From Malassezia furfur (Eukaryota), in assembly GCA_052055015.1 (NCBI GenBank), contig JBQJIT010000003.1: a DNA stretch of 64,000 bases; one strand, written 5' to 3'. The notes under the pieces were generated by a model. It searched no databases. It had not been told where the DNA came from and was given only the letters and a program-made list of their open reading frames with translations. The position numbers were made by a program, and so were the translations under genes. Position 1 is the stretch's first letter, and each line of letters opens with the position of its first letter. Shown in pieces: positions 2,075 through 52,554 of the stretch.

Positions 2075-3721
2075 ATGCCGCCCTGTGTATCGCTTGAGCT
2101 GCTCCCTCGTGAGATCCTAACGCACATTGCGCACGACGTCGCCGTGCGGCCGTCACCAGGCAGTGCCGCACCCTTCGCGCCGGGGCCGCCGCGCGATCTG
2201 CTGTGCTTGTTGTGCGCCAGCCGCGCGCTGCACCGCGAACTGAGCACCGACGTCAACACGGCGCTGTACGCGCGCATTTTTGCGAGCGTGTTTGACACAG
2301 GCGCACGCGTGCGTCGCAGGGGGCGCGCCGCGTGCACGCCCGCCCACCTAACCACTGAGCTTGTGCGCCGCTTTGGCGCTCTGAAAACAGTGCGCCGCTA
2401 CGTTCAGTACCACAGCCGCAATCTAGATGCGCCGCGCGCTGCCGACGACGCGGATGCAACACTGGTCGACGCACTCTGGTGCGTGTACGTGATGGCGCTC
2501 GAGCATGACGCACACAACCTCGCGCAGCTGCGCTGGGCACACGTCGACGAACTCGTCGACCTCCATGCGGTCCACTCGCTGTGTGACCACCTCGTGCACC
2601 AACGATACCCTCCCGCGCCGCTCAGTGTGTGCCTCGTGATGCACATCCGGTACACACTCGCTGCGATCCGCGCACCCACTCACGACGACGCGCGGTACAG
2701 CGACGAGCACGACTATCTCTTTCTCCTGCTCAAGCCCTTTGTGTTTGCCGCTCACGAGTACGCCATGTTTTACGGGCCATGGACGGCGCGCACGCTGCCT
2801 TTGGCGCGCACGGTGCGCAATCCACCGGACGCTGATGGCGGCGCGGACGCCGACCGCCTCGCGACACCGCTCGTGAGCCTCGCTGCGACCTCGTTGCTGT
2901 TTGCATGCACCGCGCGTGCGATGCATGCATCCAGCCTCAAGATGCGCCTGGATGCACGCGTCGCTCATGCCGCGCCACGTACACGGACGTCGCGTGACTT
3001 TGATGTGGACTACGCGCGCCTGCATCGCTGCTACGACGCACACGGCGCGCCCGGCTTGCGGCTCGACGATCACGTCGGCCGCTTTGCGGGCGTGTGGGAG
3101 GGGCGTTTTGCGTTTTTTGATCTCGACGCCTACCGCAGTATGCTGGATGGCAGTCCCACTGCGCTGTACGACGGCACGTTTGGCGAGCAGACACAGGTGC
3201 TACGGCTCTCGGAGGCGGTTGTGGGCATGTCGCCCGACGGTGTCGCGCAGTACCACGAGGATATGCTGAGCGACGCTCTGAGCGATGTACCCGGGGCCGA
3301 CAAGGCACGCCGTACCCCGCCACGCACGCCCCCAGCGCCTGCGCGCGACGGACAGCAGCCATTTGTGTCGCACGCGGACGGTGGTCCCCCGCTCGATGCC
3401 GATACGATGCTGCGTGAGTGGCGCCGCCTGCCGTTCTGGAGCGACGACGAGCCGAGCGGTGCGCAGGACGAGCAGCGCGAGCTGCTTCTCTACGGCACCG
3501 GGCACTCGGCGTGGGGCAAGTTTTTTGTCCGGGGGCGTGTGCGTGCCTGGGATGGGCTCGTGGTTTTGTTGAAAGAGTACGGCCCGGGGCGTCAGGGGCG
3601 CTGGCTGTACCGCGGCTACTGTGTCGCGGGCAGCGAACTGGTCGGTCGCTGGCGCGACGCGTATACCCCTTCGGCGCTCCATGGGTACGAGGGTCCTTTT
3701 CTATTGACGCGGCGCTCCTAG
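2075..3721 (+). CDS. F-box-like domain protein (fungal, uncharacterised)
   Basis: First in-frame ATG at 2075; N-terminal LELLPREILTHIA F-box-like motif; Trp/Gly-rich C-terminal domain (HSAWGKFFVRGRVRAWDG...GRWLYRGY...GRWRD). Confidence 0.65.
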   Translation: MPPCVSLELLPREILTHIAHDVAVRPSPGSAAPFAPGPPRDLLCLLCASRALHRELSTDVNTALYARIFASVFDTGARVRRRGRAACTPAHLTTELVRRFGALKTVRRYVQYHSRNLDAPRAADDADATLVDALWCVYVMALEHDAHNLAQLRWAHVDELVDLHAVHSLCDHLVHQRYPPAPLSVCLVMHIRYTLAAIRAPTHDDARYSDEHDYLFLLLKPFVFAAHEYAMFYGPWTARTLPLARTVRNPPDADGGADADRLATPLVSLAATSLLFACTARAMHASSLKMRLDARVAHAAPRTRTSRDFDVDYARLHRCYDAHGAPGLRLDDHVGRFAGVWEGRFAFFDLDAYRSMLDGSPTALYDGTFGEQTQVLRLSEAVVGMSPDGVAQYHEDMLSDALSDVPGADKARRTPPRTPPAPARDGQQPFVSHADGGPPLDADTMLREWRRLPFWSDDEPSGAQDEQRELLLYGTGHSAWGKFFVRGRVRAWDGLVVLLKEYGPGRQGRWLYRGYCVAGSELVGRWRDAYTPSALHGYEGPFLLTRRS

Positions 3722-4566
3722 TCGGCGGTGCCGTACACGACGTGCAGGTGTTGCCCCACGATTGTGCGTCCATCGAGCGCACGCACGACGTGCTCGGCGT
3801 CGTGAGCATCGATGAGCGTCACCTGCGCGGCAAATGTCTCGTCGTTGGCGCGCGGCTCGACCCAGTCGACGTGCGCCACTGCCGCATAAGGTGCCACGAG
3901 CGCACGCACGTCTTCCGCGTCGATCGTTGCGCACGGCAACAGGCCGCTGATGACGACGCGACTGCACGGTCCGTGGGCCGCCTCGGCGGTGCTGCGCTGC
4001 ACGCGCGCATAGCTCACCTCCAGTGAGTAGCCGCACCACACGCGGCCCTGTAGGTGGTGCATCGCGTCGTGCGCCTCGCGCGCTGTGTCCATGTCGACGA
4101 ACCCCCGGCGGCGTGCCTGGCCATCGAGCATCGAGAGGATGACGCAGTGCCGCACGGTGCCGTATGCGGCAAACAACTTTTCTAGCTGTACAGTAGTGAC
4201 GTCCAAGGGGATATTGAGCACGTAGAGGTTCCTGGGGGCGGGCGCTGATGCGGGCGGTGCTGAGGGCGGCGTCGTGGCCGGCGCCGTGGGCTCGGTGGGC
4301 GCGTCGTGGCACACTGGATACACGTGGCTGCGTCAGCGCGCGACGTACAGCTGGAAGCCGGCGTACATGGTGTTGTTGCGCAGGCACGCAAACTCCATAT
4401 CGAGCTGGGTGTAAAGTGCAACGGTCGCCTTGAAGCGGCCGCACTGCTGCGACACGACGACGCTGCGCACCTCGAGCGGCTGGAAGAGCTGCGCGATCTC
4501 GGCGGGCGTCACGGACGGACGGAGTGGCTCAACCACCACACGGAACTTGGGCCTACGGCGTGTCAT
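3718..4566 (-). CDS. Multi-RRM RNA-binding protein (2 exons)
   Basis: ATG 4566; 21-nt intron 4328-4348 (gtacgtcgcgcgctgacgcag) joins the 4333..4962 and 3718..4323 ORFs in frame; central RRM with RNP2 NLYVLNIP and RNP1 RRGFVDM, flanked by two weaker RRM-like segments. Confidence 0.75.
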
Positions 4567-6987: not shown

Positions 6988-8104
6988 ATGGACGCGCTGC
7001 TGGACCAGGTGAGCGACCCGAGCGACTGGCCCGAGGCTTGGGCCACGCTTCGGCCGCTTGATGCGAGCTTGCGTTGCGGACTGTGCTATGTATGTGCGGT
7101 GCTGATCCAGGACATTTTCCGCGCGCCCGTTGCCCTGCGCGAATGCGGGCACGTTTTCTGCTCGTCGTGCATCCGCACGCACATCAACCAGCCGGGCGGC
7201 TCAGGGTCGTTCTGCCCCAACTGTCGTCAAAAGAAGGCGTACGACAGTGAGCTGATGCCTCAGCTGGCACTCGAAGCGGCTGCCACGAGCTGGCGCACCG
7301 CACGGTACGTCGTCGCCTAACGCAGCGCCGACCTGGTCACCAAACAAAAGCGGCTCGACACGTTGGAACGCACGCGTGCGGCCACCACCCACGAGATACC
7401 CCCGCCCGTAACCGGCTCAGAGAAGCGCACCGCGGAGCCGGAGCATGGCCGCCGCCTACGCCCGCGCAAGGAGGAGACGGTGGATTACCGCAGCTTGCAG
7501 GGTATGTCGTGCGCGCCTCACGCAGCCGACGACACTGTCCAGTGCCCGATTTGTGCTCGAAGCTTTACTGCTGCCGACCTTAATACGCACCTCGACATGG
7601 GCTGCGACCCGTCGTCATCCTCTCCCTCGCCGGCGCCGGACCCTTTTGCGCACGCCAAACGACTCACACGGCCACAGTACCAGCTCAAATCCGAGAAGGA
7701 CCTACGAAAAATGCTTGGCGTACGTCTCTTCCTGACGCAGTCCCTCGGCCTGCCCACGCAAGGGCCCAAGGACCGCCTGATCGAACGGCACCGGCAGTGG
7801 GTCAACGTGTACAACGCCAACCTCGATGCCTCACCAGCAAATCGCGAATCGCTTGAGAGACTACGGCGCAACCTGCTGGCATGGGACAGGAACCAAGACG
7901 AGGTCGGGGTCCATGCTAAGGACAGGGTGTCCTCCGAGAAACAGTACCGGTCGTGGCTTGTATGTCGCCCTACTTATGCAGCATACCCATCGCAGCCAGT
8001 ATGCGGATCTGGCAGCCAAAGCCCGCGCATCACTTGCACCTGCTCCCAAGGCGGACGCGCCTACGGATGACCCCGACGCATCTTCTTCGACAGAATCGAG
8101 ATAG
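6988..8104 (+). CDS. RAD18: E3 ubiquitin ligase Rad18 (RING, UBZ4, SAP); 6 exons
   Basis: Introns 7090-7110, 7305-7325, 7502-7525, 7720-7740, 7960-7981. Spliced product gives RING CGLCYDIFRAPVALRECGHVFCSSC...CPNC, UBZ VQCPIC...LNTHLD and SAP-like LGSLGLPTQGPKDRLIERHRQW...YNANLD. Confidence 0.9.
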
Positions 8105-11445: not shown

Positions 11446-11550
11446 TGACAAGAGTGGGATTCGAACCCACGCCCGAAGACAACGGAAGCTAGAAGCTCTT
11501 ATATTAAGGAAACCTTAACGTTGCGCCTTAGACCACTCGGCCATCTTGCC
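11446..11550 (-). tRNA. tRNA-Leu(AAG) with 27-nt intron (11486-11512)
   Basis: Acceptor stem GGCAAGA/TCTTGTC, D-arm GCCGAGTGGTCTAAGGC, anticodon stem CAACG/CGTTG with TT-AAG-G loop interrupted after position 37, extra arm, T-arm GTGGGTTCGAATCCCAC; intron contains CCTTAA complementary to the anticodon loop. Confidence 0.95.
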
Positions 11551-13934: not shown

Positions 13935-15096
13935 ATGTCGGAAGCACGCGCCGAGAACCGGCCGTGGGTCGAGCGCTAGTAGGTGCTATGGCTTACTCAG
14001 TCGACCGAAGAACATTGATGAGGTCGCTTCGCAGCAACATGCGGTGACCATTCTCCGTAATGCGCTCAAAACAGCCAATGTAGGCAGCACGACTTACCCA
14101 GCTCCCGCACATGCTCTTCTATGGCCCGCCCGGCACAGGCAAGACGTCGACCATCCTGGCGCTGGCGCGCCAGCTGTATGGGTACGTGGAGTTTCCTGAC
14201 GCAGACCTGAGCTGATGAAATCGCGTGTCCTGGAGCTAAATGCGTCTGACGAGCGTGGCATTTCCGTGGTGCGCGAAAAAATCAAGTCGTTCGCCAAGAT
14301 GGCCGTCTCTGCGCCGAATCCGTACGTGATACGCTGACCGTGCAGCAACTATCCCTCGCCTCCGTACAAGATCGTGATCCTCGACGAGGCCGACAGCATG
14401 ACCCAAGACGCCCAAGGCGCGCTCCGTCGTATTATGGAGCAGTACAGTCGCACGACACGTTTTTGTCTCATTTGCAACTACGTCACACGGTATGTGGGCT
14501 TCTGATGCAGCATTATTGAGCCGGTCGCATCGCGATGCAGCAAATTCCGGTTCCGCCCGCTGGACCAGGCCAGCACGGAGGAGCGTCTGCGGTTTATTGC
14601 GACCTCCGAGGGCCTCAAGCTCAACGATGACCTAATACCTGCGCTGATTCGGGCATCAGAAGGGGATATGCGCCGTTCTATCACCTACCTGCAGTCTGTC
14701 TCTCGCCTGGCATCGGCGCGCGGCGGTGATGTGCGCGATATGACGGGCGATGCCGTGGCTGAGCTCGCGGGAATTGTGCCTCAGCGCATTATCGAGGCGC
14801 TCGCGCGGAGCGTCGGTATCGACACGGATGAAGACAGCGGACCGTGCGCCCATGGCTCGTCGTTTGACCGGATTTCCTCAGCGGTGCAGCATGTGGTACG
14901 CGAAGGGTATTCGAGCACGCAAGTGGTTCTTCAGCTGCACGACTATGTGATTCTGCATCCCCTGTTGAATGCGCGGCAAAAGACCAAGTGTGCACTGCAG
15001 TTTGGCGAGACAGACAAGGCGCTCATGGACGGCGGCAACGAGGCGCTCCAGCTGCTGCACCTGTGCCTCCAGCTCCACCAAGCCGTAGCCGTGTAG
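13935..15096 (+). CDS. RFC2: Replication factor C small subunit Rfc2; 6 exons
   Basis: Introns 13979-14000, 14080-14101, 14182-14204, 14322-14345, 14490-14510 restore [49 protein letters not shown] and [15 protein letters not shown]. Confidence 0.95.
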
Positions 15097-23291: not shown

Positions 23292-24510
23292 TTACTCGGA
23301 TGCGCGGTACAGTGCGTTTTGTTCAATGTACTGAATCACACTGTTAGGCAGCAGGTACTTGATCGAGTAGCCGCGGCGCACAAACAGGCGGACCTTGGAC
23401 GAGCTGATATCGTTGTAGATGGTCTGCTTGACCACGATCAAGTTGCGACGGTACATCCACAGCAGGTCGTGCGACAGCAAAAACGACCACACGTCCGCCC
23501 CGGTGCGCTCCACAATCAGGCAGCCATACCGGCCCAGGATGTGGTGCAGATCCGAGTCGGCCCACACGCCGGGCTCACCCATGCTCTGGATCAGATCGCC
23601 GCCGGCCAGCAGCATGATCTTGATTGGCTTGCGTGTGCCATCGGAGAGCAACAGGCCCTTTTCGTTGTGTTTGCCGTTGATCTCCTCGTTAAAGTGGTCG
23701 AGCACCACAGCGGTCCGTTGGTACTCGCCCTGCAGTGACTCCCACGCATCCACCATGAGCCAGTTGGACGAGCGCTCCACGGCGAGCCTGGGTCAGCGCA
23801 CTTCGGCAACGTACTCGCACATGCGCACGCGATGCGTCGCCTTAGCCAGGCCGGCCTTCTTGTACTGGTCCGACACGGGGCTATAATAGCCGGCGACCAG
23901 CTCGTAGTCGCCGTTCTCAATCACCTGGTCCTTGGCCATCTCAAACATGCGCCTATCGTCAGCCGTCGTCCACGTACAGGTGCAGGTAAGTGGGCGGGGA
24001 AAAACTGCCGCACGCGACGACAACGAGCGGCTGCTTGCGCTCGTCACGCATTTGCGTCGCGAACCGGTGCCGCGGAAACGTGTATGTGTCCATCGACTCA
24101 CCCTGCCGCGGTACGGGCGCAGTATGCGGGGAGCGCAGCGCGTGAAAGGTCTCGTCGACCACCTGCGACGCGTCGAGCTCTTCGTCGAGCTCCTCGGTCT
24201 CGTCGATCTCGCCGCTATCGTCAGCATGGCGCGCATCAAGCGCCCATTTCGGCACATCGCCATCCCGTCGCTTGTGCTGCAGCTTCGACCGCGCGTGTAC
24301 GCCGCCCTCGGCGCGCGTCGTCGTGTTGGGGACCTGCTGCTCGAGGCCCTGCGTGACGGGCCCTGCCCCGGTCACTGCAGCGCCCGTGAACGGCGGCGAG
24401 TCGAGGCGATACGAGTCGCGGTTCAGTGCCTGGTAGCGCAGCGAGGTAAACCCGTCGGCGTTCTGCACTCCGGACGCGCTCGCGGCATCGCCCCGGGGCT
24501 TGGAAGCCAT
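23292..24510 (-). CDS. NMA1: Nicotinamide/nicotinate mononucleotide adenylyltransferase; 3 exons
   Basis: Introns 23953-23977 and 23788-23814 restore GSFSPPTYLHLRMFE and HRVRMCELAVER; LLAGGDLIQSM, NDISSSKVRLF. Confidence 0.95.
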
Positions 24511-36884: not shown

Positions 36885-39800
36885 CTACTTCAGCAGCTGC
36901 CACAGCACACGCGCGCGCACCGGCGCAAGCGCAGCATATCCCGCACGCTCCAGCGTCGTGTGGGCGCCCCGCGACGAATCCACAAGCCAGCTCGCGACGA
37001 GCAGCCGCTCCAGCCGGTTGGCCTCGTCGGGGGCATCCAGGGCCTGGAGCGCGTCGCGCGGAAGGTGCGCCTCGAGCGCGGCACACGCCGCGTCGCGGTC
37101 GTCGGGCACATCGGCGGTCGCCTGGCGCAGCTGCTTGGCCGCAGCGTCGGACACGGCGCCGTGCGCCTCCCAATGCGCCGCAAGCGTCGCGAGCGCCGCA
37201 AACTGCGCAGGCGCCGTACCGAGGTGTGTGAGCGTGAGCTTCGATGCCGCGTCGTGCACGAGGCCGAGACGCTGGGCACGCATGAGCACCTCGTCGACCA
37301 CACACGAGAGCGCCGCAGCGACTTCGGCACGCGGCGCCGTCTGCTGCGCACATGCCACGCCATAGTACACCGGGTTTGCTGCGATGCGGTGCGCCAGCAG
37401 CGACGTGCCGAGCCACGCCACGAGCGCATTGCGTGTCGTGCGCTGACCCTCGCCGAGGCTGCGGCACACGGCGTCAAGCAGCGCAGGGCTCGATGCCAGC
37501 GCCGACTCGAGTACGTACGGCTGGCGTACCTGCCGGGCCAACGCCGGCGCGCGCGTCGGCTGGCACAGCACAACGCACTGCCCACCGCTCGGCGCGTCGG
37601 CGCGCGAGGCAAGCGCGTGCATCTGCAGCATGTCGACGATGGGGTATTCGGCCACCGTGCCACGGCCCTCGGATGGGACGTAGTACTGCGTTCCCAGCAC
37701 CAGGACGAGGTGCGCACGCAGCGGCACCGCGTATACCGCCGCACGCGGCAACACGACAAAGCGCACGAGGCGTGCGGCATACAACTCTTCGACCAGCGCG
37801 CGGTCGGACGGCGCGAGCGACGTGTGCCACACCGCGACGCCTTGGCGCAGAAGCTGCCCCAGCTCGGCGTCGCGCGCACGCACGGCCAGGCCCGCACCGT
37901 CGGTGAGCTGCATCGCGCTCGCATCGGTCGCGAGGCGCGCGACCAACTCGCGCGCCGCCGCGAGGCACTGGGCGCGCGACGACACGACGAGCAGCGTCGG
38001 TGCGTAGTTGGCGCCCTGGATCCGGTCGTACGCAGGCTTGACAAACACGCGCACCATCGCCTCCGAGTATGCCACGTCGACGGTCGCCACCTCGAGCGTC
38101 GCGGGGTACGGCGCATCGCCCGGCTGGAAGGTGTAGGTGTGCTTCGGTGCGACACGCAGCCACGCCGCGACGCTCGGCGCGGTGGCGAGGCAGGCGGACG
38201 TCGCAACGACGCGTGCGGCTGTGTGCTGCAGCGCGCGCATCACCGCAAGCTCGTAGGCGGCGTCCATGCGGTGCACGTCAAGCACAACGACAAGCGTCGG
38301 CACGTCCTCGGTCGTGTCCGGCACGTCAGCCGGCGTCAGGACCCACACGTCCGACGACGCGCCGCCCACAGTGCGTCCGCGCGGCGCATACGCGCGCAGC
38401 GGCGCAGCGGCCGCCTCGGCGCCCGCCGCGTCCGGCACAAGCACCCACACCTTGCGCTGTGCCCACACGGCGGCCGCCACGACGGTGCGCTTTCCGGCAC
38501 CGATCGGCGCACACAGCAGCACGTTGGACGTCGTGTGCGCGAGCGTGTGAAAGACTTGCGTCTGCAGCGCATTGAACGTCGTGATGCCGCTCCGTGCGTA
38601 CGCTGCGGCGATGCCCGGCGCAAGGCACGTCTCGAGCGGCAGCAGCGGCAAGTCGAGTACGGGCGTCGGTGGCGCCGCCGATGGTGGCCACACGTCGTCG
38701 AGCGAGACGACGACGGCGCCCTCGGCGCCGAGCCAGTGCACCGACGTCCACGCCACCGTGTACGTCGCCTGGCTCACAGGACGCTCGGCGGGCGTGCCGC
38801 ATGGCACGTCGACCTCGAGCGTGCGGTCGGCGCCGAGCACCGGCGGCGTGCGCCGGCGCAGCGTGAGGGTCTCGGCGTACGCAATGCGCTGCGCGCCGTC
38901 CTCCACGTACACCACGATCGGCAGCGACGCGCCGTGCACGCGCTCGCTCCACACAAACGCCTGCGTGACGTCGATGAGGAGGCGCACGTAGCCGTCCGGC
39001 CGCGGGCGCACGCGCACAGCGAGGTCCACCTGCGGGAAGTGCGATGCGGCGTCGTGCACGGCACTGGCGGTGCGCTCGTTGGTGTGCAGCACGCCGGCGA
39101 GGTCCGGCAGGGCGAGCGCACGAATTTGGGCGACCTCGAGCTCGTCCGCATACTGCGTCACCTTGTGGATGACGTCGCGGTGGAGCGTCGTCATCTGGCG
39201 AAGCGGGTGCTCGTACGGCCAGATGCGGTGCTCGACGGCCTTGGCGAGGCTCAGGAACGCAAACGCCGCCGTCGCATAGCCGCGGTCCAGCGCGAGATCA
39301 AAAAGCGACTGCAAAATGCGCCCCGCGTTCTGCGCAATGTACCGCATGTCGCTCACCAGGGCAAAGTCGTCGACATACAGATTGGAAATGTGCGCCTGGA
39401 GCAGGATGTTGACCTTGCCCTGCTGCGTCTTGGCGCCGCCGGGCACCTCGCACGGGATGCGGTCGAGGAGCGCGTCGAGTTCCGCCTCCTCGCTGTCGCG
39501 CATCGCAATCTGTCCAAAGTCGGTCGCGCGGCTCATCAGGTCGAGTGCGTCGGCCTCGCGCAGGTTGTTGCGCAGGCGCTCCTGGAAAATGCTGACCGTC
39601 TTGTAGTGCAGGTAGTAGCGCGACGCAATGCGGCCCACGGCCGTCGTGTGCAGCCGCCCGGTGGAGTCCATCACCACCATCTCGTGCTCGACCAAGATGC
39701 GCGCCGCGTTCATAATCCAGTGCTCGCGCCGCGTCGTCAGCGACGGGTCCGCGGCAAGGTCCGCGAGGTCGATGCCGTACACGAGCGGCGCCTTGTTCAG

Positions 39801-41852
39801 GCGCGTGTACAGGTAGGTAAAGCCCAGCCACGACACGCCGTCCGCCACACTCGACACCGAGCCAAGGGCCACCTCGGCGTTGAGCGCATCCACAATCCCG
39901 CTCAGGAAGCGCGACTCGATCGGGTGCGACGAGGTGATCGCCTCAATGTAGTGCGGCACCTTTTCGCCCGACGTGCAGATGTAGCCCACACCCACATCCT
40001 CGTACTGCGGACGGCCTGCACGACCGAAAATCTGCAGCACATCGAGGATGCCCAGGTCGACAAACTTGCCCGCCTCGGCGTTGTACACGTCGGTGCCCTT
40101 GATGATGACCGCGTATGCAGGTAGGTTGACACCCCAGGCGAGCGTCGCCGTACAGCAGAGCACGCGCGTTGCACCGGCGGCAAACGTGCGTTCCGCGAGG
40201 TCGCGGTCGCTGCGCAGCATACCGGCATGGTGGATACCGATGCCGTGGTCGTACAGCTCGCGCAGCTCGCGGTTGCGGCTCGCTGCCATGTCGCGGTCAA
40301 AGCGCGTGTCCTCGCGGTCGTCGGTCAGTAGCCCACTCAGGCCGTCCTCCTTGCCGAGCTCAAGCAGCGCCTGTGCGGTCTTGACGGTATCTTTACGGGT
40401 ATGCACAAACACCATCACAGGGTGCCGCTGCTCGGCCAGGGCAAGCACTTTTTCATACACCACGCGGTCGAGATGGCCGCGCGCGAGCGCCGACCCATTC
40501 TTGCCCCGCACGCCCACAAAGTGCTGCTCGAGCGGCACAGGGCGGAACGAGGAGCCAAAGTAGAACAGGCCGCGCCACCGGTTCACCCCAAGAAAGTCGG
40601 CCACATCGACATAGTTGGGCAGCGTCGCACTCAGGCCCACAATGCGGATCATGGTCTGCGCCGACTCGACGAGGCGCTGTGTGCGGGCAACGATCGTCTC
40701 GATCACCGCACCACGGTCCTCGTGTAAGAGATGCACCTCGTCGATGATGAGCAGCCGGACAGACAGCGCTAGCTCGCCATCGCCCACCGGCCGACGTGTC
40801 ACCACATCCCACTTTTCCGGCGTAGTGACAATCATCTGCGTCTCGGCAATTTCGCGGCGCGTGAGCTGCATATCACCCGTCAATTCGCGCACGCGGATCC
40901 CAATGTATTGTAGACGCTTGGAAAACTTGGCGACAACCTCGGACACGAGCGCCTTCATGGGCGCCACGTACACAATCTTGAAAGCATCGCGGTCCACATG
41001 GATTTTGCTGCCCTGGACAGTGGAGAAGCGCGAGATGCACCGCAGCACGGAGAGCATCGCGACGTCCGTCTTGCCTGCACCTGTCGGCGCACACACCAGC
41101 ATGTTCTCGTTCGACTGATACGCAACGGGGTACACGGCGCTCTGCAGCCGATTCAGGCTCTCGTACGAGCGAAAGGCGCCCTGGCACAGCGTGTCCATCT
41201 CCGACAGCGGCACGAGGCGCTCCGTCGCGCGGAAGGGCAGCGGCTTGCTGGGCGGCACGGTGACCTCCTCGTAGTACGACTCATGCACGCGAGTCGTGCC
41301 CATCGGCAGCGCAAAACGCGAGCCACCGGCCGTCACGACGCGATTCTGTTCGCCACTCGCAAATACGTTGGGGTATTGCTCTTCCTCGGCTGCCGGTGCA
41401 AGCTGCAGCGGATCCGCGCTGGAGCCCACGCCCGCAGCGCGCTGCGTCAGCTCGCGGTTCACAGCGGCGAGCGCCGCGCCGCGGTCGCCCATAACGCCCG
41501 TCACGAGTTCGAGCTCGTCGAGGCCCAGCAGTTCGGCCAGGTCCTCGGCTGCGCGCTCTGCATCGCTGCGTCCCAGGGCATCGCGAAGACCCTCCAGAAT
41601 GTGGCTCTGTGTTGCACGGTCCGAAAACCGACCCTCGACATGATGCACGAGCCGGTCGCCGACGCTTGACGTGGGCGGAGGCCGCGTGGCGGTCTGTTCG
41701 CTCAGTGCCAAATTTGCCCAGATGGTGGCGCGCGGCGCCGGGGGCAAGGTATCTTGCGGCTCATCCAGCACCTGAAACTCAGGCGGGATGTCCGTCAAAG
41801 GCGGCACTGTGCCGTCTACGAGCCCCGCGGCCAACTGCGGCCATTCGTCCAT
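36885..41852 (-). CDS. SLH1: Ski2-like helicase Slh1/ASCC3 (Rqt2) with a degenerate second cassette
   Basis: First cassette intact (APTGAGKT, DEVH, LSATLPN, QIFGRAGRPQ) followed by a Sec63 domain; YPNVF...FALPMGT N-terminal features of Slh1/ASCC3. Start chosen at ccaccATGG (41852). Confidence 0.85.
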   Translation of the reverse strand: MDEWPQLAAGLVDGTVPPLTDIPPEFQVLDEPQDTLPPAPRATIWANLALSEQTATRPPPTSSVGDRLVHHVEGRFSDRATQSHILEGLRDALGRSDAERAAEDLAELLGLDELELVTGVMGDRGAALAAVNRELTQRAAGVGSSADPLQLAPAAEEEQYPNVFASGEQNRVVTAGGSRFALPMGTTRVHESYYEEVTVPPSKPLPFRATERLVPLSEMDTLCQGAFRSYESLNRLQSAVYPVAYQSNENMLVCAPTGAGKTDVAMLSVLRCISRFSTVQGSKIHVDRDAFKIVYVAPMKALVSEVVAKFSKRLQYIGIRVRELTGDMQLTRREIAETQMIVTTPEKWDVVTRRPVGDGELALSVRLLIIDEVHLLHEDRGAVIETIVARTQRLVESAQTMIRIVGLSATLPNYVDVADFLGVNRWRGLFYFGSSFRPVPLEQHFVGVRGKNGSALARGHLDRVVYEKVLALAEQRHPVMVFVHTRKDTVKTAQALLELGKEDGLSGLLTDDREDTRFDRDMAASRNRELRELYDHGIGIHHAGMLRSDRDLAERTFAAGATRVLCCTATLAWGVNLPAYAVIIKGTDVYNAEAGKFVDLGILDVLQIFGRAGRPQYEDVGVGYICTSGEKVPHYIEAITSSHPIESRFLSGIVDALNAEVALGSVSSVADGVSWLGFTYLYTRLNKAPLVYGIDLADLAADPSLTTRREHWIMNAARILVEHEMVVMDSTGRLHTTAVGRIASRYYLHYKTVSIFQERLRNNLREADALDLMSRATDFGQIAMRDSEEAELDALLDRIPCEVPGGAKTQQGKVNILLQAHISNLYVDDFALVSDMRYIAQNAGRILQSLFDLALDRGYATAAFAFLSLAKAVEHRIWPYEHPLRQMTTLHRDVIHKVTQYADELEVAQIRALALPDLAGVLHTNERTASAVHDAASHFPQVDLAVRVRPRPDGYVRLLIDVTQAFVWSERVHGASLPIVVYVEDGAQRIAYAETLTLRRRTPPVLGADRTLEVDVPCGTPAERPVSQATYTVAWTSVHWLGAEGAVVVSLDDVWPPSAAPPTPVLDLPLLPLETCLAPGIAAAYARSGITTFNALQTQVFHTLAHTTSNVLLCAPIGAGKRTVVAAAVWAQRKVWVLVPDAAGAEAAAAPLRAYAPRGRTVGGASSDVWVLTPADVPDTTEDVPTLVVVLDVHRMDAAYELAVMRALQHTAARVVATSACLATAPSVAAWLRVAPKHTYTFQPGDAPYPATLEVATVDVAYSEAMVRVFVKPAYDRIQGANYAPTLLVVSSRAQCLAAARELVARLATDASAMQLTDGAGLAVRARDAELGQLLRQGVAVWHTSLAPSDRALVEELYAARLVRFVVLPRAAVYAVPLRAHLVLVLGTQYYVPSEGRGTVAEYPIVDMLQMHALASRADAPSGGQCVVLCQPTRAPALARQVRQPYVLESALASSPALLDAVCRSLGEGQRTTRNALVAWLGTSLLAHRIAANPVYYGVACAQQTAPRAEVAAALSCVVDEVLMRAQRLGLVHDAASKLTLTHLGTAPAQFAALATLAAHWEAHGAVSDAAAKQLRQATADVPDDRDAACAALEAHLPRDALQALDAPDEANRLERLLVASWLVDSSRGAHTTLERAGYAALAPVRARVLWQLLK

Positions 41853-41901
41853 GGTGGGACCTTCGCGGGTTAGGTAAGCAGGTTGCCTCCTACTTCGATC
41901 G

Positions 41902-42033
41902 GTACGTTGGAAAACGGGCGCGAAGGATGAACCTCCTTCGTAAATCAATCTGTCAATCCACTGAGATTCGTCCATGATTGCACACAGGACTCCTGAACGC
42001 GCCCACACATCCCGATACAGTGCTGACTGCTAG
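41902..42033 (+). other. 5'-UTR spliceosomal intron A (132 nt) hosting a snoRNA
   Basis: Donor GTACGT at 41902, branch GCTGAC 42022-42027, acceptor TAG ending 42033. Confidence 0.7.
41916..42004 (+). ncRNA. Box C/D snoRNA guiding SSU rRNA Um at the yeast U1231 / human U1288 equivalent (SNORD110-like)
   Basis: Terminal stem GGGCGCG/CGCGCCC; box C variant AGGATGA 41924-41930; D' CTGA 41961; C'-like ATGATT 41974; box D CTGA 41993. Guide TCAATCTGTCAATCC (41945-41959) is complementary to the conserved 18S GGAUUGACAGAUUGA (rRNA sequence recalled, not aligned). Confidence 0.85.
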
Positions 42034-42168
42034 GTATGTTTTGCTGCCGCCACCATGATGAGCATTTCAACAGACTCGAAAGCGACACACCGAAAGGTGG
42101 TGGGCGACCAAAATGCGTTATTGTCCTGAGTGGCCGGACACGCGATGTGACTAGGTACTGACTTTTAG
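42034..42168 (+). other. 5'-UTR spliceosomal intron B (135 nt) hosting a snoRNA
   Basis: Donor GTATGT at 42034, branch ACTGAC 42157-42162, acceptor TAG ending 42168, 2 nt before the ATG at 42171. Confidence 0.75.
42049..42134 (+). ncRNA. Box C/D snoRNA, snR68-like (LSU rRNA Am2640 equivalent)
   Basis: Terminal stem GCCAC/GTGGC; box C ATGATGA 42055-42061; box D CTGA 42126-42129. Guide TGCGTTATTGT (42114-42124) is complementary to LSU AC(A/G)AUAACGCA; the D+5 rule selects the A equivalent to yeast A2640 (rRNA sequence recalled, not aligned). Confidence 0.8.
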
Positions 42169-42170
42169 AG

Positions 42171-42722
42171 ATGCATGCGGTCGAAAAGGACATGGCCGTT
42201 TTCCACCTGCCGGGGCATCCGCTCCCGGCGGTGACAATGTTGCAAAGCACCGATGGTACGCAGCCGCAGATCGACTTGTTCATGCTGTCGCTCAGTCGTC
42301 CCGTACTGCTGTGCGCATTTTCTTTTCCTACGCGTATCACGGCGCAAGGCGAGGAGGTGGACTGCGGCCCGACACAGCCCAGCAGCCTGCAGCTGGCGTC
42401 CTTCAAAGAACACATGGATACCCTCAAAAAGTGGGAGCCTGACCTGCTCGTGTTTGGGCTCAGCACGTACTCGCCTGCGTGTCAGTCGCGCATCCACGCC
42501 ACTCTCGGCCTGCCGTTCCCGCTGCTGAGCGATGCCAAGCGCGAGTTTAGCGATAAGCTCGAGCTTCCCATGCGCGAGGACGGCGGGATGCAGGTACTGC
42601 AGCGGTGCACGCTGCTCTTGCGCGAGGGGCAAGTGACGCGCATCGATTACCCCCTGTCGGACCCGACGCAGGCCGCGGTGCGGGCCGAGTACATGTTCCA
42701 GCGCGATGCCGGGCATGACTGA
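42171..42722 (+). CDS. Redoxin/AhpC-TSA (peroxiredoxin BCP-like) fold protein, apparently lacking the peroxidatic Cys
   Basis: LPAVTMLQSTDG...RPVLLCAFSFP...VFGLST...LGLPFPLLSD...RCTLLLREGQV...YP pattern of BCP-like redoxins. Confidence 0.7.
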   Translation: MHAVEKDMAVFHLPGHPLPAVTMLQSTDGTQPQIDLFMLSLSRPVLLCAFSFPTRITAQGEEVDCGPTQPSSLQLASFKEHMDTLKKWEPDLLVFGLSTYSPACQSRIHATLGLPFPLLSDAKREFSDKLELPMREDGGMQVLQRCTLLLREGQVTRIDYPLSDPTQAAVRAEYMFQRDAGHD

Positions 42723-50599: not shown

Positions 50600-52554
50600 A
50601 TGGAGTGTGACCATCCCATCCAGGTGGGCGGGCTCTGTGCCGTATGTGGAAAAGAGATTGACGAGTGCGTGACCCAAATTGACGCAGGGAATCGTTCGGG
50701 GAGCAGACCTATGCAACGCTGCACTCCAGTGCGAGTGTCAAAGTGTCGCGCGCCGAGGCCGAGCGCATCGACCGCGAGAGCACCACACGGCTGCTCGAGG
50801 AACGCAAACTGGCGCTGATTGTCGACCTGGACCAAACCATCATCCATGTCACGGTTGATCCCACCGTGCGTGAGTGGGCGCAGGACGTGACAAACCCGAA
50901 CTGGGAGGCACTCAGTGACATCGTTGCGTTCCAGCTGGGCGCCGACGGCAAGACGGTGTCGCACGCGCCCGAGGCACTGCACAAGGACGAAGCCAAGTCA
51001 TTTGCAACCGGTGGTGATGAGGACGGGTGCTGGTACTTTGTCAAGTTACGTCCGCAACTCGCGAGCTTTCTTGCGGCGCTCGCGACCAAGTTTGAGTTGC
51101 ACGTCTACACGATGGGTACGCGGTCGTATGCCGACTGCATCTGCCGGATTGTGGATCCCACTGGTAAACTGTTTGGTGCGCGCATTTTGTCTCGCGATGA
51201 GAACGAGAGCATGGCTCAAAAGAGCCTCTCGCGCCTCTTCCCGGTTAACACGTCCATGGTGGTGATCATCGATGACCGCGCCGACGTGTGGTCGTGGTCG
51301 CCGAACCTAATCAAAGTCGAGCCATGTATGTGGTGTACTGACGCAGACGAGTTCTTTGTAGGCATTGGTGACATCAATGCGGGCCATCTGGGCCCTAGTG
51401 TGCCGACGCCGGCGGTGCCGGCGCCCGAGAAGGAGGCCAGTGCGCCGCTCGCCGAGCAGCAGCGGCAGACGATCCACGAACAGGTGGATGCGCGCCCGCT
51501 CGCGCGTCTCCAGGAGGAGAAGAATGCGGTGCAGGACGAGGGCAAAGCGGCGGCCGTCGCTGCGCCGGCGCAACAGCAGGCGGTGCTGCACAACGACGAT
51601 ACCAACCTGGACCTGATCCAGTCCGTACGTGTCCTGCGGCTCATCCAGCTTCTTGAACAGATCCACGATGAGTGGTATCGCGCGCACGACGCGCATAAGG
51701 ACGTTGACGTGAAGGACATCATCACGCGCATGAAACGCACAGTACTCCAGGGATGCGTGCTGGCATTCTCGGGGCTGATCCCGCTGAACGAGCAGCCAGA
51801 GCGGTACGTGGTGTGCTGACCCAGCTCCGCCATCTGGACCGCCGCGGAAGAGTTTGGCGCACAGTGCCGCCGCGACTTGGCCAAGGACGTCACGCACATG
51901 GTCGCTGCCAGCGCCGGCACCGCCAAGGCCGAGGAGGCGTTCCGGCGCGGCGGTGTGCACGTCGTGTTCCCCGCGTGGCTCAACGACTCGCTATGCCAGT
52001 GGGTGCGCCAGAGCGAGGAGCTGTACTGCGTGCCGCGCAGCGACCGACTCGCAACCCTCGACGCAGGTGCGCTGCAGGATTTGGCGTCGAGCGTGCACGC
52101 GGACCCCGAGAATGCCGATGAGGTCGCACTCGATGACCTGGCGAACATGGACTGGGGCGAGGCCGAGGATGAGGTGGAAGCCTTCCTCGACGACGACGAC
52201 GACGACGACACGAACAGCGAGCTGAGTCAGTCGCAGCACAGCGATGTGTCGGAGGCGCCGAGCGAGGTGGGCGACAGCGCCGATGATCTGCTGGGCTCGC
52301 CGCTGAGCCGCCGGCGGCACGCAGCGGCTCAGCGTGGCGGCCCCTCGAAGCTGCGGCAGAGCATCCTCGCGGAGGACGCCGAGGAGGGCAGCAGCGACAG
52401 CGATGCCTCGGCCGCACCGAGCCCCAAACGCGCACGCACGCAGGACCGCGTCGCGTCGCTGCGGGACGAGCGCTCGCCGCCCGAGAGTGAGGACGAAGGG
52501 TTTCTCGACGAGCTCGCACACGAGATGGAGCGCGAGCTCGGGGACGATCTATAG
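50600..52554 (+). CDS. FCP1: RNA polymerase II CTD phosphatase Fcp1; 5 exons
   Basis: Introns 50665-50687, 51326-51346, 51625-51648, 51804-51824. LIVDLDQTIIH catalytic motif, YTMGTRSYA, IIDDRADVW, EPYEFFVGIGDIN, BRCT domain, acidic tail. Confidence 0.95.

Follow-up and report, generated by a model that had tools for sequence, protein, structure and literature searches.

Organization of the Locus

A 64,000-nucleotide (nt) stretch of the genome of the skin yeast Malassezia furfur (NCBI GenBank assembly GCA_052055015.1, contig JBQJIT010000003.1), here called the window, contains two intron-like units that abut without an exon between them, each enclosing one box C/D small nucleolar RNA (snoRNA). 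The units lie between a Brr2/Sec63-type helicase gene on the minus strand and an AhpC/TSA-like gene on the plus strand, and they account for 267 nt of the 318-nt gap between the two. Positions are those of the window, and features are on the plus strand unless stated otherwise. Intron A spans 41902-42033 (132 nt), with the donor GTACGT at 41902-41907, a branch motif CTGAC at 42023-42027 (branch A at 42026) and the acceptor TAG at 42031-42033. Intron B spans 42034-42168 (135 nt), with the donor GTATGT at 42034-42039, CTGAC at 42158-42162 (branch A at 42161) and TAG at 42166-42168. The first base of intron B (42034) directly follows the AG of intron A (42032-42033), leaving an exon of 0 nt, and the junction reads CTGAC-TGCTAG/GTATGT at 42023-42039, that is, a 3' splice site with its own upstream branch motif joined to a donor.

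Both introns carry the signals of U2-type introns in their local form (GTAYGT donor, CTGAC branch, YAG acceptor), and in both the snoRNA is held between donor and branch point (GTAYGT ... CTGAC-N4-TAG). Their internal geometry is closely matched. From donor to box C there are 22 nt in intron A and 21 nt in intron B, from box D to branch A 30 and 32 nt, respectively, and from branch A to the intron end 7 nt in both. The original prediction, made from the sequence of the window, had given these motifs, coordinates, distances and lengths and had assigned one C/D snoRNA to each intron. Direct reading and scripted motif location reproduced every one of the positions and measurements exactly, and boxes, terminal stems and complete signal sets are present for each snoRNA.

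The junction is rare as a composite signal. A single match to the pattern CTRAY, 1-8 nt, YAG, 0-1 nt, GTAYGT exists on the two strands of the window, and 100 windows simulated from a first-order Markov model held 2 matches, or 0.02 per window. A chance origin of the junction composite is excluded.

The Short Introns of the Window

Most introns of this genome appear to be of a very different length. A motif of the form GTRNGT ... CTRAY ... YAG, confined to 21-33 nt, was found 30 times on the two strands of the window, against a mean of 2.3 and a maximum of 6 in 30 first-order Markov simulations. The donors of these mini-introns are chiefly GTACGT (19/30) and GTATGT (7/30), the branch motif is CTGAC in 18 of the 30, and the acceptors are CAG (26/30) or TAG (4/30). 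Branch A most often lies 5 nt from the end of the intron (20 of the 30), less often 6 nt (6), 7 nt (2), 8 nt (1) or 12 nt (1). Removal opens a reading frame that is otherwise closed in 19 of the 30 under a looser criterion, and 8 pass a strict criterion that adds a third-codon-position G+C content (GC3) of 0.75 or more; 6 others are in frame and free of stops, so that the test says nothing about them, and 5 lie too near a neighbouring intron for it to be applied. Nine mini-introns are exactly 21 nt long; examples of the mini-introns lie at 7090-7110, 14490-14510, 23788-23814 and 51804-51824. With branch A 5-8 nt from the 3' end in 29 of the 30, about 15 nt remain from donor to branch point, a strikingly tight arrangement. 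The genus Malassezia has been described as having very short introns (PMC7426719).

Set beside these, each snoRNA intron looks like a local mini-intron with a snoRNA placed between donor and branch point. The claim that introns A and B are the only complete long introns in the window agrees with the motif scan, in which the other convincing introns measure 21-33 nt; the scan covered part of the longer motif combinations, and the claim stands to that extent.

Two Box C/D snoRNAs

The two RNA elements have the defining features of box C/D snoRNAs, with box C near the 5' end, box D near the 3' end, and a terminal stem. A crude search of the window gave 7 box C/D candidates, of which only these two have a donor within 60 nt on the 5' side and a branch motif within 90 nt on the 3' side. 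snoRNA A, of the SNORD110/snoR14 guide type, occupies 41916-42004 (about 89 nt). Its terminal stem joins GGGCGCG (41916-41922) to CGCGCCC (41998-42004) with a duplex energy of -16.7 kcal/mol. Box C is AGGATGA (41924-41930), which departs at position 2 from the consensus RUGAUGA. It is followed by a guide (41945-41959), a D' box CTGA (41961-41964), a C'-like ATGATT (41974-41979) and box D CTGA (41993-41996).

The relation of snoRNA A to known families runs through its guide. Against Rfam SNORD110 it scores 16.9 bits (E 1.3; gathering score 64) and is aligned through an identical guide and D' box, and its orthologue in the related yeast described below (locus L001) scores 14.6 bits against snoR14, a family of the same clan (CL00076; gathering score 40), again through guide and D'. 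The likeness to SNORD110 and snoR14 thus lies in the identical guide and D' box, a perfect complement to a conserved stretch of 18S ribosomal RNA (rRNA); the difference lies in an overall similarity far below gathering and in the AGGATGA box C. Since only guide and D' are common to the Rfam families, snoRNA A is classed as a functional equivalent and not as a family member.

With a eukaryotic small-subunit (SSU) rRNA, the guide forms an uninterrupted duplex of 15 nt (-25.7 kcal/mol). This rRNA came from a scan of viral contigs with the 15-nt guide, which returned 48 loci; Rfam was run on 13 of the 48 and the sequence context was viewed for all 48, and a single locus, L020, showed rRNA (partial eukaryotic SSU, 534.5 bits). 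The contig of L020 is itself an oddity, being an entry of a viral collection that ends in a partial eukaryotic SSU rRNA gene (3632-4543), and it is probably misfiled cellular DNA. From the pairing, snoRNA A is proposed to guide 2'-O-methylation of a conserved 18S site. The target is presumably the 18S-Um site of yeast snR55, the equivalent of SNORD110/snoR14.

snoRNA B occupies 42046-42138 (about 90 nt, the ends being approximate). Box C is ATGATGA (42055-42061) and box D is CTGA (42126-42129), and a terminal stem forms within 42045-42054 and 42130-42139 with a duplex energy of -10.9 to -11.5 kcal/mol. Immediately 5' of box D stands the guide TGCGTTATTGTC (42114-42125), which comparison with the relative marks as the single conserved guide of this snoRNA. 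No Rfam family matched snoRNA B at E<=10, whether the copy in the window or the L001 orthologue was searched; weak matches to COG2908 and snoZ5 that appeared in the snoRNA search lie on the opposite strand and were dismissed. The guide found no convincing pairing partner in the partial SSU rRNA of L020, and a literature search with the 12-nt guide and its complement gave nothing related. The large-subunit site of yeast snR68 may be its target, a possibility that is given no weight here. A further segment of snoRNA B, at 42082-42106, folds into a 25-nt GAAA-capped hairpin that is identical to that of the relative at 24 of 25 positions, between the boxes and where no guide is expected. This conserved internal hairpin could be an accessory pairing element or a protein site.

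Conservation in a Related Yeast

Metagenomes were scanned for the guide and D' of snoRNA A, a gap of 135-165 nt, and the guide and box D of snoRNA B, with neither box C nor any splice signal specified. Two loci were returned, L001, on a 235-kb contig, and L002; the latter is 99.6% identical to the former over 1379 nt, so that the two represent the same species and are not independent. Among the five mismatches between them, one falls at position 2 of the snoRNA A box C (L001 2724-2718). Scans of a genome contig collection for further relatives, with the tandem pattern and with snoRNA B only, gave no matches.

The L001 locus is syntenic with the window, with a helicase gene, the snoRNA region, an AhpC-like gene, a PTPLA gene and the same fourth gene. 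The AhpC-like proteins of the two are 46% identical (72 of 157 aligned residues), a distance at which neutral sequence would be expected to be scrambled, and in a feature-anchored comparison the five spacers of the snoRNA region are 40-54% identical. Against this background both donors are preserved at 6 of 6 positions (GTACGT in intron A, GTATGT in intron B), both branch motifs change from CTGAC to CTAAC and so stay within CTRAC, and both acceptors change from TAG to CAG and are still YAG. The guide of snoRNA B is identical at 12 of 12 positions and the guide region of snoRNA A at 27 of 33. The terminal stems differ in sequence between the window and L001 yet pair in both, the L001 stems at -8.4 (snoRNA A) and -10.8 (snoRNA B) kcal/mol. 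Box C of snoRNA B is TTGATGA in the orthologue; that of snoRNA A reads GAGATGA in L001, and L002 has the canonical GTGATGA; as position 2 differs among L001, L002 and the window, it evidently varies freely among these yeasts. The geometry is also similar. Introns A and B of L001 measure 144 and 140 nt, with 23 and 26 nt from donor to box C, 34 and 30 nt from box D to branch A, and 9 and 8 nt from branch A to the intron end.

These results dispose of the view that the locus is a chance constellation of motifs, with neither snoRNAs nor introns, in an AT-richer intergenic stretch of a window of 64% G+C. GTAYGT does occur 80 times on the two strands of the window, with only 26 of these beginning a mini-intron motif, and snoRNA A combines an imperfect box C with sub-threshold Rfam scores. 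Set against this, the junction composite expected 0.02 times per window was seen once, the guide of snoRNA A is perfectly complementary to 15 nt of 18S rRNA, guides, boxes and splice signals recur in a relative found without specifying box C or splice signals, and terminal stems that have diverged in sequence still pair. Chance is effectively refuted by the 18S pairing, the conservation in the relative and the statistics of the composite.

At the junction itself, L001 and L002 have the CAG of intron A, a single G, and then GTATGT, so that the exon between the introns is 1 nt long. The original prediction had made conservation of the AG/GT junction in related genomes a check on its reading. The internal branch motif, YAG and GTATGT are all retained in L001/L002; the direct abutment of AG and GT is not, the relative having AG-G-GT. 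The conserved trait, judged by this comparison, is two introns with essentially no exon between them and not the zero length itself.

Conservation of the internal signals also bears on whether there are two introns at all. The region could instead be one intron of 267 nt, running from the donor at 41902 to the acceptor at 42168 with its branch at 42161, that carries two snoRNAs, its internal signals being relics of a lost exon and the snoRNAs being separated by an endonuclease after debranching. The spliced messenger RNA (mRNA) would be identical, and for its own expressed sequence tags (ESTs) one study of fungal snoRNA clusters offers a comparable alternative, in which one functional donor chooses among several acceptors (PMC3596301). 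Against this, the internal GTATGT at 6/6 positions and the internal CTRAC and YAG persist amid flanking spacers that are 40-54% identical, and the internal branch lies 7-9 nt from its AG, as in genuine introns of this genome. Spliceosome profiling in fission yeast, moreover, shows catalysis at an internal site of this kind (bioRxiv 10.1101/226894). A single intron is therefore considered unlikely.

Host Gene, Leader and Neighbors

The gene downstream of intron B supplies the putative host transcript. Its exon 1, placed from the layout of open reading frames, would lie within 41853-41901 and belong to the 5' untranslated region (UTR); it contains no ATG. Exon 2 (42169-42722) would begin with two UTR bases (AG), followed by the coding sequence of a 183-residue AhpC/TSA-like protein with its ATG at 42171 and a stop codon ending at 42722. 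The protein matches Pfam AhpC-TSA at 27.6 bits against a cut-off of 26. Among the 20 of 78 candidate homologues with E<=0.001, the best named ones are from Malassezia spp., that of M. obtusa being 80% identical, and two homologues of 183 residues cover 100% of the query, from which it follows that the same start codon is used elsewhere. The ATG thus stands 2 nt past intron B in the window, and it follows the acceptor at 0 nt in L001; placement of both introns in a 5' UTR, as originally proposed, is supported. The two introns hold seven ATG triplets when unspliced, of which intron A contributes 2 and intron B 5.

The upstream neighbour is the divergent helicase gene (36885-41852, minus strand; Sec63 214 bits, DEAD 116.9 bits), whose start codon lies at 41852-41850. 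It leaves 49 nt (41853-41901) for exon 1, unless the transcript begins within the helicase gene. Because no more than 49 nt separate the minus-strand start codon from the first plus-strand donor, the divergent transcripts would start within each other's 5' ends or overlap them, and the promoter of the helicase gene must overlap the snoRNA introns. Shortly 5' of the first donor, a pyrimidine-rich run is found in both species (CCTCCTACTTC in the window, TTTTTCCTACCACTC in L001).

So small a gap leaves promoter placement unclear, and this has been counted in favour of snoRNAs transcribed from promoters of their own, as mono- or dicistronic precursors cut by nucleases, with the splice-like signals idle and the AhpC-like mRNA starting downstream. 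Independently transcribed and polycistronic snoRNAs are common in budding yeast, a view echoed in PMC5033589. Such a scheme does not account for two full, genome-typical signal sets, one around each snoRNA and with corresponding spacings in two distant species. In addition, since the ATG follows the intron B acceptor by 0-2 nt in both species, an mRNA starting 3' of the introns would have almost no leader. Transcription from separate promoters is considered highly improbable.

Elsewhere in the window, a search against Rfam at gathering thresholds matched a transfer RNA (tRNA) gene and nothing else. It lies at 11446-11550 on the minus strand (47.2 bits) and contains 32 extra nt where the model places the anticodon loop, a tRNA intron of the eukaryotic type.

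Proposed Route of Expression

Intronic snoRNAs are generally made by splicing, debranching of the lariat, and exonucleolytic trimming down to the small nucleolar ribonucleoprotein (snoRNP), and for this reason an intron carries one snoRNA. The most probable reading of the locus, to which we assign a probability of about 0.8, is that two touching spliceosomal introns in the 5' UTR of the AhpC/TSA-like gene are each excised as a lariat of their own, each releasing one snoRNA. The pre-mRNA would then double as mRNA precursor and snoRNA host. Each intron would leave as a separate lariat, which would be debranched and trimmed by exonucleases to the snoRNP, giving free snoRNA ends without any endonuclease.

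Removal would have to be sequential: the branch point of intron A (42026) lies 8 nt 5' of the donor of intron B (42034), so that the two introns could hardly be engaged simultaneously. Neither removal destroys the signals of the other intron, and either order is thus formally possible. Intron A would more likely go first; its removal would recreate a regular 5' splice site, ...TCG/GTATGT, and so amount to recursive splicing through an exon of zero length. Intron B would follow. Once both were gone, a short leader without an upstream ATG would remain.

Several points weigh against this reading. The transcription start, use of the internal site, separate lariats and the order of removal are all inferred from the DNA, and the final mRNA would be identical whether one 267-nt intron or two introns were removed. 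Exact abutment is not conserved, the relative having an exon of 1 nt where the window has 0 nt; there is one independent relative, as L001 and L002 belong to the same species; and the spacing limit of 135-165 nt in the scan could have favoured relatives of similar geometry. An exon 1 of at most 49 nt, unless the start is inside the helicase coding region, is unusual and unexplained. snoRNA A falls far under the Rfam gathering score (16.9 versus 64) and has a box C that deviates from RUGAUGA, snoRNA B matches no Rfam family at E<=10, and its 12-nt guide is a candidate rRNA guide.

A further proposal is advanced tentatively, its probability falling short of even. The junction of 0 or 1 nt may be, not a passive relic, but a selected device, which would impose an ordered two-step removal, give each snoRNA its own lariat, fix the distance from box D to the branch point at about 30-34 nt and, by way of the seven upstream ATGs, couple translation of the redoxin-like protein to complete snoRNA release, in a genome whose spliceosome would routinely handle introns of 21-33 nt. 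In that case no junction of this kind would have been known before from a basidiomycete or from a protein-coding host. If this were true, an exon that changes freely between 0 and 1 nt within the genus would demonstrate that the spliceosome can do without any exon between two introns.

Whatever its selective history, the arrangement has a practical side. Malassezia gene models probably miss both snoRNAs, and in the UTR either a single intron of 267 nt or no intron at all may be annotated.

Comparison with Known Systems

In the long introns of Drosophila and vertebrates, recursive splice sites (ratchet points) of the form YAG/GTRNGT regenerate a 5' splice site. Ratchet points subdivide introns of tens to hundreds of kilobases that carry no RNA cargo; the Malassezia introns measure 132 and 135 nt, contain a snoRNA each, and have a relative that tolerates a 1-nt exon. 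The original prediction started from the premise that AG/GT junctions are described mainly in very long animal introns. That premise, and with it the high novelty, was wrong. Exon-less or one-base-exon junctions between snoRNA introns have been published for Candida, Debaryomyces, Yarrowia, filamentous ascomycetes and fission yeast (PMC3596301; PMC5033589; bioRxiv 10.1101/226894).

The closest counterparts are the juxtaposed snoRNA introns of ascomycete clusters. Stepwise 5'-to-3' removal of such introns was demonstrated with ESTs and reverse transcription PCR (Luo et al., 2013; PMC3596301); among 42 EST products, the first intron was out in 18, the first two in 14 and all three in 10, and a downstream intron had been removed first in 0 (PMC3596301). 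One-base and zero-size exons were seen by RNA sequencing of Candida clusters, and the same study describes protein-coding genes whose UTR introns contain snoRNAs (Donovan et al., 2016; PMC5033589). As in these clusters (Luo et al., 2013; Donovan et al., 2016), the present locus has adjacent introns with one C/D snoRNA each and an exon of 0 or 1 nt between them; in the window this is 0 nt, and in L001/L002 it is 1 nt (G). The likeness extends to a snR55-type snoRNA, which is part of the cargo of cluster II. Removal in the clusters is stepwise or recursive and the conservation of the junctions is ascribed to snoRNA release, and the same would apply here. The hosts differ: clusters I, II and III have non-coding ones, whereas the host here is the mRNA of a protein-coding AhpC/TSA-like gene. 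Malassezia, moreover, is a basidiomycete, with normal introns of only 21-33 nt, and the partner of its snR55-type snoRNA is not identifiable by Rfam as snR61; that snoRNA B might be snR61, the partner of snR55 in cluster II, was considered and no evidence was found in support. Juxtaposed fungal snoRNA introns reportedly figure also in a 2010 study by Mitrovich et al., to which both Luo et al. and Donovan et al. refer.

Fission yeast offers a second parallel. In the Schizosaccharomyces pombe host SPNCRNA.445 (snoRNA61), spliceosome profiling places catalysis at an internal zero-length exon that is conserved in sister species (bioRxiv 10.1101/226894). There, as here, a 3' splice site adjoins a 5' splice site within the intron of a snoRNA host and the flanking splice sites are conserved; the differences are that in S. 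pombe internal cleavage has biochemical backing and the host is non-coding (bioRxiv 10.1101/226894), and that the Malassezia case is a prediction from sequence. Stwintrons and nested splicing across exons of negative size likewise involve introns so close together that the order of removal is forced (PMC6616335; PMC8469720; PMC5033589). In a stwintron, a splice signal of the outer intron is split by an inner one. The present junction belongs to neither kind: AG (42032-42033) and GT (42034-42035) share no base, neither intron interrupts the signals of the other, and all three signals of each intron are intact.

Within the literature searched, no report of such snoRNA introns in Malassezia was found. 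Exon loss is listed in the accessible text of Luo et al. for Hemiascomycetes, Euascomycetes and Archiascomycetes, and their three basidiomycetes do not appear in that list (PMC3596301); the supplements of the same paper, which possibly hold basidiomycete exon sizes, were outside the search. The main text of "The fungal snoRNAome" (PMC5824354) makes no mention of Malassezia, snR55, snR61 or snR68.

The arrangement described here is real, and it is of a kind already known from other fungi, with a mechanism established elsewhere; no new mechanism is opened, since experiments in other yeasts have already shown recursive splicing across junctions of this sort. What is new is its occurrence in this lineage and in the 5' UTR of a protein-coding host, together with the contrast to standard introns of 21-33 nt and the difference of 0 versus 1 nt between species. 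That difference amounts to a natural experiment, and it supports recognition of the intron as a unit, with no exon needed between one intron and the next. Exon-less snoRNA junctions have so far been documented in the non-coding hosts of ascomycetes; with this locus their range would come to include a skin yeast among the basidiomycetes, and the leader of a gene that encodes a protein.

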